From Promethearchaeia archaeon (lineage in GTDB: Archaea; Asgardarchaeota; Lokiarchaeia; Sigyniarchaeales; SOKP01), in assembly GCA_036478875.1 (NCBI GenBank), contig JAZGEW010000025.1, forward strand, positions 10,132 through 74,131: a stretch of DNA of 64,000 nt, given 5' to 3'. Shown here one piece after another: positions 3,571-5,853 of this stretch. The notes beneath the pieces were generated by a model. That model made no database searches. It had not been told where the DNA came from and saw only the letters and a list, made by a program, of their open reading frames with translations. How positions within the stretch are numbered: position 1 is the first letter of the stretch; the number at the start of each line of letters is the position of its first letter. The translations under genes and the position numbers were made by a program.

Positions 3571-5853
3571 TTAGGTCCGTTTGTAAATAAACCGCTCCCA
3601 ACTTTTTCTGGAAGGCATTTCTTCAGGCATTCCCTTTCTTCTACGAATCTCCATAATGAGATCTTCTTCTAAAGAGCCAGGAACTTTTTCAAATCCTAAA
3701 AATTCATATCCAAAGAAAGCTCTTCCCTGTGTTGAGCCTCTAATATCATCAGCAATGCCGATAGTCTCTGCCGCAGGGATTTGACCTTGAATTCTGACAT
3801 ACTCACCCTCTGGAACAACATTGGTAATTCGACCACGTCGCTTTGTTATGATAGCAGTGACACTTCCTTCAGTTCCTTGTGGTGACTTTATGTCTATTTT
3901 CTGGACTGGTTCGAAGATATGTGGATTTGCGTCTAGCATGGCTAATGACATAGCAGAAAACGCCATTCCCGCAATCTGTCCATAAGATGTGTGTCTGGTA
4001 TCCTCGTGAATAGTCATATCCGTAAAAATTACTTTAATTCCAGTAGCAGGTTCCTTTGCTATAATACAATTACCTAGCCAATCTCTAAAAGCTGCACTCA
4101 AATAAGATTTAACACGATCAAATCTCTGTAATCCCGAAGTACCATTTACAAGAGCACTTCCTTGATATACATCAACAATACGTTTGGCTTCTTTTGCATC
4201 CCATCCAGCTTCTTCTCTAAGTATTTTAGCTCGATCTTTATCATTTTGTAAATCATTAACTTTCCCGGTTTCGATCAGATGTTCAGTTATTTCATCCAAA
4301 GGTTCTATGTATAATAAAATACGATTATGCGAGTTTGCTGATTTGGTATAATAAGTTGGACTTTTTTCAGTAATTTTTTCTCTATAAACGATTATTGGTT
4401 CTCCGATATTAATATTAACTTGTTTATTTATCCTTTTTACTAAAATCTCGATCTGTAATGGATCGATTCCTGATAGAATAAATTCTCCTGATTCTTCATC
4501 CCTTCTATATTCTGCTGTTGGATCTGCTTTAAGCCATTTGCTTACAACATCATCTAATTTATCAATTTCATGCGGATCTTTTGGTTTAATGCTTCTAGAG
4601 ACAACAGCTTCACATGCATAATGAATTTTTTCGAAAGAGGGTAATCTCTTCCTTTCTTCTCTATCTTTAGGTACGGCATTGGTCGACATAAAAGTCTCTC
4701 CAGAAGGGCAAATAAAACCAAATATTGCAAATAAATTACCTGCAGGGATCTTAGGAATGTCTAAAATGTCCGTAATTTCCATAACACCTAATCTTTTCAC
4801 TCGATTGCTCGAATCACTATTTACTAGATAAATTGAATCAGTTTGATTAAACGTACCCGAAAAAACACGACCTATAAGAGTTGGTTGAAAATTCCTCTTA
4901 GGATCAAGGAATATCTTGGTAATCATCCCGTACAGTGGCCCGTTTGGGTCACTCTTCTGTAGAGCTTTACCTAATTCGGAATTTAGGTCACCTCCCCATA
5001 TATGAGGGATTCTATATTTGGAAGCTGCAATAGGATCTGGAAGATGGTCTACAATCATTCTTAACATAGGCTCATCCAAAGGTAAATTATCTCTTAACCA
5101 CTGGATATCTCCTTCATTATATTTCTCAAAAACATCTTGAGGTTTCATACCTTTTTCAAGTAAAATTTCATAAGTAAAACCCCATCCATGTTTAGCTGAG
5201 CCAACCGCAACGGAATTTTTAGCAAAATCAATACTCCAATTTGATCCTTCAGGTCTTACTTTTTTAATTAAATCATTAATTTCTCTTGTGATTTTATCGA
5301 TTTTCTCAAAAGTTTCTTGAGGACTTAGTTTTAATTCACTTATCAATCTGTCAACCTTGTTAATATAAAGAACGGGTTTGCAGTATTCTTCACCAACAGA
5401 CAATCTAATATTAGTTTCTGTTTGTGTCATAACTCCTTCAAGAGCGTCTACTAAGATTATAGCACCATCTGAACCTCTGAGGGCTCGAGATACTTCCCCT
5501 GTAAAACTGATATGACCGGGAGTATCATTAAGTTGGATAATATAAGGTTCTTCGTCATCAGGTTTTCTCGAATCATTAAATGCCAGGAGTACTACAGAAG
5601 TAAAAATTGTGATGCCTCGCTCTTGCTCCTCGTCTTTCAGTAAACTAAGTATGTCTTAATTTATATCTGAATCGGTCATTTGGAGCTGTCCAGCGTCTTC
5701 AGGTCTCATAAGCCCAGCTCTGCGTAGCAAGTAGTCGGTGGCTGTTGTTTTGCCATGATCTATGTGAGCGGTGATTGAAAAGATTCTTTTCTTCTCATAT
5801 GAGCCAGAAGTAACGAGTGCGCTGATTTCATCAGGATTCTTTACTTTAACCAT
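3571..5853 (-). CDS. fusA: Translation elongation factor EF-2 family protein, two exons (5853..5665 + 5634..3571), 750 aa after splicing
   Basis: AHIDHGKTT lies in ORF 5656..5853. The same frame resumes after a 30-nt insert with DEEQERGITIF...NDTPGHISF...DALEGVMTQTET and joins ORF 3571..5430, which has NKVD and EF-2 domains II-V. May be the Asgard aEF-2 paralog. Confidence 0.92.
5635..5664 (-). other. Putative 30-nt bulge-helix-bulge mRNA intron in EF-2
   Basis: mRNA reads UCAG-AU^A-UAAAUUAAG-ACAUA-CUUAGUUUA-CUGA-AA^G: 4-bp central helix UCAG/CUGA, two 3-nt bulges and a 9-bp hairpin. Contains in-frame UAA. Removal gives TDSD|DEEQERGITI. Confidence 0.88.

Follow-up and report, generated by a model that had tools for sequence, protein, structure and literature searches.

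A probable 30-nucleotide bulge-helix-bulge intron in the coding sequence of elongation factor 2 of an Asgard archaeon

The closest described counterpart of the element reported here is the intron of cbf5 in Crenarchaeota (Watanabe 2002, cited in Yokobori 2009, PMC2738675), which resembles a bulge-helix-bulge (BHB) element, lies in the coding sequence of a housekeeping gene and is cut by EndA. According to PMC7714728 (2020), cbf5 of Crenarchaeota is the sole reported archaeal mRNA BHB intron besides the paper's own, which is found in Haloferax volcanii HVO_1309. We describe a 30-nucleotide (nt) element at positions 5635-5664, on the minus strand, of a 64,000-nt stretch of DNA from a lokiarchaeal Asgard archaeon (contig JAZGEW010000025.1, positions 10,132 to 74,131), termed the window. 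The element interrupts the reading frame for elongation factor 2 (EF-2), of which the organism has a single canonical gene, and is, very probably, a BHB intron.

Like the cbf5 intron, the EF-2 element is BHB-like and sits in the coding sequence of a housekeeping gene, and its patchy presence among relatives recalls the lineage-specific presence and loss described for cbf5 (PMC2738675). The gene and the phylum differ, and Cbf5 in the genome of the window (G000; metagenome-assembled, 162 contigs, 88% complete, 6.4% contamination) is an uninterrupted open frame of 342 amino acids (aa), stop-free within its match. Unlike the cbf5 case, the EF-2 family has several insertion points, and at least four genes of one genome are interrupted. 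The HVO_1309 intron is an mRNA substrate of the splicing endonuclease, as the EF-2 element would be, but it lies in the 5' untranslated region and was shown by experiment (PMC7714728), whereas the EF-2 element lies in coding sequence and is known from sequence. Its host also has another type of EndA, which according to PMC5829648 is unable to cut noncanonical introns.

Noncanonical tRNA introns of Asgard archaea and Thermoproteales have the same 4-bp helix, two 3-nt bulges and relaxed hBH or HBh' form as the EF-2 element (PMC11291895, PMC4090602). They share the enzymes proposed for EF-2, and repeated gains in Asgard tRNA genes are stated in preprint 10.64898/2026.10.13.758758, in whose searchable text the term "mRNA" has 0 occurrences. 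What removal restores differs, namely the fold of a tRNA in those cases and the reading frame of a message here. In animals, exon joining in splicing of the HAC1/XBP1 type is performed by RtcB. As would be the case for EF-2, HAC1 and XBP1 undergo spliceosome-independent cutting within a structured mRNA, a tRNA ligase joins the exons, and the unspliced message yields a different or truncated product (PMC4090602, PMC13149111). Unlike what we propose for EF-2, the nuclease in those systems is IRE1 rather than the tRNA endonuclease. Splicing there serves as a regulated switch in the stress response.

The kind of element is already known, the cbf5 intron being the closest example; what would be new is its occurrence in EF-2 and in Asgard archaea, at several genes and sites, with apparently fast turnover. 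Full-text searches, with most subscription journals and all supplements out of reach, turned up no paper that describes a BHB intron in EF-2 or in any protein-coding gene of Asgard archaea. A literature search found "elongation factor 2" and "bulge-helix-bulge" together in one 2010 genome paper only, matched by these terms.

The EF-2 gene (aEF-2) occupies 3571-5853 on the minus strand, as do all of its parts given below. Exon 1 (5665-5853) has 63 codons, starting with ATG at 5853-5851, and contains the P-loop AHIDHGKT. Exon 2 (3571-5634) is an open frame of 687 codons followed by a TAA stop, and begins with the DEEQERGITI of switch I. Translated straight through, the sequence reads ...QMTDSDIN(stop)DILSLLKDEEQERGITI...; the insert is in frame and contains one TAA (5656-5658), as its third codon. 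This stop would end the product of unspliced RNA at 65 aa (open reading frame, ORF, 5656-5853), and the next ATG past the insert opens an ORF of 619 aa. Joined, the exons encode 63 + 687 = 750 aa.

The best family for both exons is TIGR00490 (NCBIfam aEF-2), which matches exon 1 at profile positions 15-60 and exon 2 at 62-718. Scored separately, the exons reach 29.9 and 582.7 bits, respectively, where the cut-off for the whole protein is 738.45. Pfam places GTP_EFTU 2-35 in exon 1, and GTP_EFTU 49-187, EFG_III, EFG_IV and EFG_C in exon 2. G000 has one other gene of the EF-2 family, a paralogue (aEF-2p) that is 33% identical. According to PMC6143161, archaea without diphthamide synthesis have a bona fide aEF-2 beside a loop-less paralogue, aEF-2p, and the canonical EF-2 of most Lokiarchaeota has serine or glutamine at the loop's glycine position. 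The domain-IV loop of the window EF-2 retains HxDxxH, with RG changed to TS, and no HxDxxH loop was found in the G000 paralogue. Because the window gene fits this pattern and the paralogue lacks the loop, the interrupted gene is presumably the only candidate translocase of the organism.

The mRNA sequence, taken from the minus strand, is ...ACCGAU UCAG AU/A UAAAUUAAG ACAUA CUUAGUUUA CUGA AA/G ACGAGG, where slashes mark the predicted splice sites. Exon UCAG (5667-5670) pairs with intron CUGA (5637-5640) to form a central 4-bp helix, all four pairs of which are kept in 13 of 13 distinct rows of the alignment described below. The 5' bulge A-U/A (5664-5666) contains the splice site 5665/5664 and the 3' bulge A-A/G (5634-5636) the splice site 5635/5634, both boundaries being set by intron-less orthologues. 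The inner hairpin (5641-5663) consists of a 9-bp stem (5663-5655 with 5649-5641) with one U-G pair, and a 5-nt loop, ACAUA (5654-5650). A distal exon-exon helix pairs GCUCC (5682-5686) with GGAGC (5625-5629), and an extra UG (5678-5677) pairs with CG (5632-5631). The GCUCC/GGAGC helix is 11 nt and 4 nt distant from the motif. This distal pairing is seen in both single-sequence and consensus folds.

PMC4090602 defines a BHB by a 4-bp central helix and two 3-nt bulges on opposite strands that hold the splice sites; UCAG/CUGA and the bulges AUA and AAG correspond to these parts. The insert has the relaxed HBh' form, in which the central helix is joined by the 9-bp inner stem stacked on the bulge. 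An initial annotation of the window had given the same letters and the same fold, with a 9-bp hairpin, one of its pairs being G-U, stacked on the bulge. It also called the outer helix weak and the BHB relaxed, which is correct for the adjacent helix, a single U-A pair, but overlooks the distal GCUCC/GGAGC helix.

RNAfold recovers the hairpin and the UCAG/CUGA helix at -11.4 kcal/mol (z = -2.84), a value equalled by 1 of 200 shuffles. In its minimum-energy form, the helix is longer by one U-A pair, which uses up the 3' bulge, and GCUCC/GGAGC is also paired. The RNAalifold consensus independently gives the hairpin, the central helix and the distal helix.

An EF-2 orthologue is present in all 41 genomes of a first sample that includes G000, and a search of 54 genomes of the genus gave 52 matches at E <= 1e-200. 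In the genus, 14 genomes have an EF-2 open frame of 694 aa and 2 have one of 720 aa, whereas most of the remaining frames are about 750-769 aa long. These length classes arise because some loci carry inserts, as seen in an alignment of 55 loci, of which 14 have the switch-I insert, 40 lack it and 1 is ended by a contig end. The carriers are G000, G001, G007, G013, G016, G017, G018, G023, G043, G050, G051, G054, G062 and G067. In 40 of the 54 readable rows, one clean block of 30 nt is absent, and TCAGAT/GAYGAR stands in its place. An endonuclease of two-fold symmetry cuts after the second base of each bulge, and TCAGAT/GAYGAR is the product that such cuts would leave. The boundaries cannot slide, because the last bases of exon 1 and of the insert differ, as do the first bases of the insert and of exon 2.

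The initial annotation had called a 30-nt BHB intron at 5635-5664, and the alignment of orthologues by presence or absence that it suggested places an exact gap there, with both ends inside the bulges. Its 65-aa product of unspliced RNA agrees with the ORF at 5656-5853. Its spliced protein of 750 aa with a conserved switch I matches the predicted 63 + 687 codons, and the 40 intron-less orthologues read SDDEEQ at the junction. It had described both exons as otherwise intact, and they are stop-free in 13 of 13 carriers, the only gaps being three alignment columns in six rows.

The exon bases that flank the insert differ between carriers and non-carriers. Upstream, CAGCTCC...TCAGAT is found in all 13 carriers readable there, and downstream, GAGGAGC in 12 of 13. 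GCTCC occurs in 13/13 carriers and 3/39 non-carriers, GGAGC in 12/13 and 2/39, and both together in 12/13 and 0/39. Across seven phylogenetically independent pairs, the motif tracks the intron in 6.8 on average and never runs opposite to it (sign test, median p 0.016). The serine codon is TCA in 13/13 carriers, and TCA, TCG, TCT, AGC, AGT and others in non-carriers; TCAG is present in 13/13 carriers and 25/39 non-carriers. This association could reflect selection for the central and distal helices, or transfer of the flanks together with the intron.

Four further positions in EF-2 genes hold inserts of the same kind. A P-loop intron of aEF-2, at AH/IDHGKT, is found in G018 (L020:3690-3726, minus strand), G041 (L042:266-302), G069 (L043:266-302) and G042 (L099:601-637, minus strand). 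It is 30 nt long and contains in-frame TGA and TAA, a GCGC/GCGU helix, bulges AU/C (AU/U in G069) and AA/A, and a 9-bp stem with compensatory changes. The EF-2 gene of G018 carries both the P-loop and the switch-I intron, and its P-loop motif is closed by an exon-exon helix of 9 bp. In G104 (L102:601-636, minus strand), a homologue of the switch-I intron, also 30 nt, lies 6 nt upstream (MTD/SDDEEQ), where a second ...CAGAU precedes it; its helix is ACAG/CUGU and its 9-bp stem is perfect (z -3.13). This looks like sliding or re-insertion at a look-alike target. G077 has a frame-shifting insert of 31 nt at AHID/HGKT (L096, minus strand), about 120 nt upstream of a switch-I intron in the same gene; its central helix has three pairs and one mismatch.

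Three further genes of G000 are interrupted in a similar manner. The paralogue aEF-2p has an in-frame, TAA-containing insert of 30 nt in its P-loop, at GHIDHGK/TT (L002:3584-3613 = G000:C13:38283-38312, minus strand), in BHB register, with helix UGGU/GCCA, bulges AAA and AAA and an inner stem that pairs poorly; of 30 orthologues aligned, 1 has this insert. A gene for an FGGY carbohydrate kinase, with Pfam FGGY_N 1-78 before the insert and 79-245 after it, contains 33 nt with a TAA and helix AAUC/GAUU (L200:874-906 = G000:C8:4473-4505, plus strand), an exact block that is absent in 31 of 32 genus orthologues. In an aldolase gene of the DeoC/LacD family (L233:915-944 = G000:C144:21914-21943, minus strand), 30 nt with a TAA, helix CAUG/CGUG and a 7-bp stem stand at ...AIDHG/YFGN..., and this exact block is absent in 29 of 30 genus orthologues. 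At every one of these sister sites, in EF-2 and elsewhere, the boundaries are in register with two 3-nt bulges around a central helix of three or four pairs. Such recurrence is the strongest support for a process rather than an accident. Among the 11 genes of G000 with a GTP_EFTU domain, an internal stop is found only in the two of the EF-2 family.

Covariation was assessed in an alignment of 14 switch-I and 3 P-loop introns. Paired cells contain standard pairs in 96.4% of cases, vs 31-43% if partners are slid by 1-3 columns, and five pairs are altered on both sides. The covariation score is 0.352, compared with 0.139 in shuffles (0 of 500 reach it) and at most 0.07 in the slid controls. In the inner stem, 94.9% of cells are paired over 13 distinct rows and two pairs are changed on both sides; stem position 3 is A-U in some and G-C in other switch-I introns. 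The initial annotation had proposed looking for compensatory changes in the UCAG/CUGA helix among orthologues, and in three of its four pairs both bases are indeed replaced when the switch-I site is compared with the P-loop site (UA/GU, AU/GC, GC/CG).

Genes for the enzymes that splicing would require are present in the genome. G000 has three EndA-domain genes (PF01974) of two kinds, all above the Pfam cut-off. Two are near-copies by eye and most like chain B of the two-subunit structures PDB 3p1z, 3ajv and 2zyz, and the third is distinct and most like 1a79. One RtcB ligase gene is present, also above cut-off. PMC5829648 reports that Asgard archaea have an (alpha-beta)2 EndA with an L1 loop, which is tied to relaxed BHB recognition; by analogy, the host should possess an EndA of the broad specificity needed, the loop being taken from that description of Asgard archaea. 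ARAGORN, a tool that is unreliable for such genes, reports 30 tRNA genes only in G000, 19 of them with an intron, three of these introns being 29-30 nt long. Many tRNA genes of G000 were probably missed owing to unusual introns, and the result fits the heavily interrupted Asgard tRNA genes reported in PMC11291895 and in preprint 10.64898/2026.10.13.758758.

We propose that the EF-2 pre-mRNA folds such that exon UCAG pairs with intron CUGA, leaving two 3-nt bulges, with the 9-bp hairpin of the intron on one side and the distant GCUCC/GGAGC closure beyond. EndA would cut once in each bulge, and RtcB would join the exons to give ...TDSD/DEEQERGITI within an EF-2 of 750 aa. Because unspliced RNA would stop at the intron TAA after 65 residues, no EF-2 with a disrupted switch I would be made. 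Any regulatory role of such splicing is something we infer.

Other explanations of the insert were considered. In translational bypassing, which is known from phage T4 gene 60 and the mitochondrial "byp" elements, the insert would stay in the mRNA and the ribosome would hop over it, with the hairpin aiding take-off. Bypass elements resemble the EF-2 insert in being short, stop-containing and equipped with a hairpin, and in lying within essential genes; the EF-2 insert even begins with its stable hairpin. They need matched take-off and landing codons, and the aEF-2p insert would suit this, with AAA before the gap and AAA as the last gap codon, but at two of the three insert sites checked the codons are unmatched. 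At switch I, take-off GAU faces AAA as the last gap codon, and landing on the next Asp codon, GAC, would yield a protein one residue shorter than that of the 40 intron-less orthologues. At the P-loop site, CAU faces UAA, and the next His codon lies inside the P-loop, such that landing there would delete part of it. Moreover, the stop is the third codon rather than adjacent to the take-off codon, and exact 30-nt equivalence to intron-less genes is unlike hopping. Bypassing also leaves unexplained the helix and bulges in register with the boundaries at all examined sites, and we judge it very unlikely. Read-through or recoding of the stop, which would add 10 residues to switch I, could draw on the insert being in frame and a multiple of three in length. 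However, the P-loop insert has two in-frame stops, that of G077 shifts the frame, the spacing of switch I is invariant in the 40 intron-less orthologues, and the encoded "peptide" varies as an RNA stem does and not as a protein does; this reading is scarcely credible. A self-splicing group I or group II intron was dismissed, the insert having 30 nt and the catalytic cores of such introns hundreds of bases. No Rfam family is matched in the window at gathering scores.

The literal frame is broken by the TAA into listed ORFs of 65 aa and 619 aa, as would be seen if the insertion had disabled the gene, leaving either a pseudogene or a split gene whose two pieces are made separately. Yet both parts are conserved in all 13 carriers, with dN/dS among carriers of 0.02-0.07 for exon 2 (for exon 1, dN is 0.02-0.08 and dS is saturated). 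The P-loop and switch I, like the DxxG motif region, lie ahead of the start of the 619-aa ORF, which would lack them, and the insert is present in three or more genera. Neither G000 nor the single-contig carrier G023 yielded a second canonical EF-2; G023 has two such genes only, EF-2 and the paralogue. We consider a disabling insertion highly improbable. An assembly or sequencing artefact might be feared in a window drawn from a metagenome-assembled genome of the contig number and contamination given above. The insert, however, stands with its own substitutions in 14 separate assemblies of the genus and in six more genomes found with the covariance model described below. In two DNA runs from different studies (X1 and X2, of which X1 is possibly the source sample of the window), one contig each bridges the insert without a gap. 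The initial annotation would have abandoned the intron if reads did not support the insert; the contigs from both runs span it, and an artefact seems next to impossible. Among sequencing runs listed as containing this stretch, none is recorded as RNA. Two runs labelled metatranscriptomic, and marked "probably DNA", have no listed piece across the insert. "Joined" forms in these runs were rejected as spliced RNA, as they consist of loose ends only and their flanks have the codon choices of intron-less relatives; the same form is found in DNA run X2. Because of these codon choices and the presence in X2, we ascribe the joined forms to other species.

Several observations weigh against a BHB intron in EF-2. 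Cleavage and ligation themselves are steps that we infer. The strict hBHBh' form is not seen, as only one U-A pair adjoins the bulges. Much of the covariation stems from comparing two different insertion sites; the 13 switch-I carriers by themselves have one doubly changed pair, and their "further pair types" fall below shuffles. The aligned rows are close relatives, and their number of "pairs with a change on both sides" is reached by 52 of 500 shuffles. Several sister inserts fold no better than shuffles (z = 0.08 for the paralogue, -0.99 for G069 and -0.93 for G077). Recombination could have carried the flanking synonymous sites along with the intron by hitch-hiking, in which case their link would not reflect selection on a helix. 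One carrier from another genus, G090, lacks the distal GCUCC/GGAGC pairing; therefore, the distal helix is not obligatory. Finally, a scan of G000 for BHB geometries (4 + 3 bp) by which one open frame is linked to another finds no excess over expectation at any length from 15 to 110 nt, with 28 vs 21.9 expected at 30 nt.

Among the ORF-joining BHB candidates of the genome, the window intron ranks 1 of 1985 by helix energy, at -7.2 vs -5.1 for the runner-up, a rank that we take as more than chance. The largest excesses were 50 vs 32.9 expected at 45 nt and 46 vs 34.2 at 48 nt; the scan ranks candidates and cannot count introns. Candidates C103:38385-38411 and C64:17461-17508 were rejected, each joining two neighboring genes, which by eye we take to be a gcvT-like end with a gcvH-like start and the end of ribosomal protein S17 with the start of L14, respectively. 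Candidates in C39, C55, C65, C108, C118, C147 and C157 were also set aside, as they look like neighboring genes. For a 29-nt BHB candidate in a small Arf/Ras-like GTPase (C144:1697-1725), the better explanation is that the frame shifts by one base within a G run. The frame changes at four G residues (L266:590-630 = G000:C144:1689-1729), and Arf/Ras matches the left part only; this shift may be an assembly error or real. C84:3906-3965 and C80:8196-8255 were neither accepted nor rejected.

To examine distribution, covariance model R1 was built from 17 sequences and searched against 151 genomes sampled from the order. It found 24 places below E 1e-5, in 22 genomes, and scores the window intron, which is itself part of the model, at 55.7 bits (E 2.7e-10). 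Seven further carriers were inspected, comprising G060 and G042 in the genus and, in two other genera of the same family, G114, G147, G077 and G113 (g14) and G090 (g16). Six of these have switch-I introns at the switch-I site, and G042 has the P-loop type.

Within the genus, presence of the intron is patchy and almost unstructured on the gene tree. This tree was made by a quick method from 47 genus rows, with introns and flanks left out, and is unrooted with respect to the trait. Its 14 carriers require at least 10 state changes; when labels are shuffled, the mean is 12.2, and 10 or fewer suffice in 7% of the shuffles. By comparison, at least two independent losses are given for cbf5 in PMC2738675, a much slower turnover. 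Such unstructured presence means that precise losses were many, that gains were many, or that recombination has uncoupled the site from the remainder of the gene; these comparisons indicate that gain or loss is frequent. The intron of the deep-branching G043 is identical to those of G001 and G050, which hints at transfer.

The inserts described above suggest that the EF-2 intron may not stand alone. It is possible, although we stop short of calling it probable, that a living population of BHB mini-introns of about 30 nt is colonizing protein genes of this Asgard family, and that the introns are not isolated relics. G000 has at least four interrupted genes, and three of their four inserts are present in no other alignable genome of the genus. 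In genes of the EF-2 family, the first 65 codons alone contain five or more insertion points. A search of G000 with R1 finds the EF-2 intron only and does not match the introns of the paralogue, the kinase or the aldolase; thus, the four are not one sequence family by this model. No donor copy of the intron was found in G000 with blastn-short. Taken together, the several introns of G000, the multiple sites, the copy 6 nt upstream and the identical distant copy would suggest that the introns are mobile, with the 4-nt match of the intron's 3' end to the exon as their guide. They could have moved by reverse splicing, with endonuclease and ligase acting before the product is copied into DNA, or by recombination akin to homing. 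In G000, none of the four introns lies beyond the first 80 codons, a remark made post hoc, as the scans were not set for position. One possible reason for this bias is that splicing has to be complete by the time the first ribosome reaches the site.

Gene callers will report such genes as truncated or broken, which introduces errors into proteomes and marker-gene sets, and EF-2 itself is a phylogenetic marker. A single genus, with more than 50 species sequenced, now allows gain and loss of introns in protein genes to be tested. The observations also bear on the origin of protein-gene introns, in that messages, too, appear to be substrates of the tRNA-splicing machinery in the archaea nearest to eukaryotes. 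If a population of mini-introns exists, the closest prokaryotic relatives of eukaryotes would gain and lose protein-gene introns by means of a protein-only splicing system.

Outside EF-2, R1 has five weak matches with E-values of 0.005-0.03 (two in G139, one each in G025 and G134, and one at G077:C11). They were not accepted, as they lie in stop-less open frames, at gene ends or outside a clear frame. One of the matches in G139 (L103:601-638, minus strand, G139:C108; E 0.017) is in frame and stop-less inside a gene, and may be either a stop-less intron or a chance match. An apparent 174-nt insertion in exon 2 of EF-2 in G060 (L100, G060:C111) proved to be a scaffold gap, a run of N with duplicated flanks. 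In G013 (L022), the EF-2 gene reads ATA at the place of the ATG or GTG start codon of the other orthologues.

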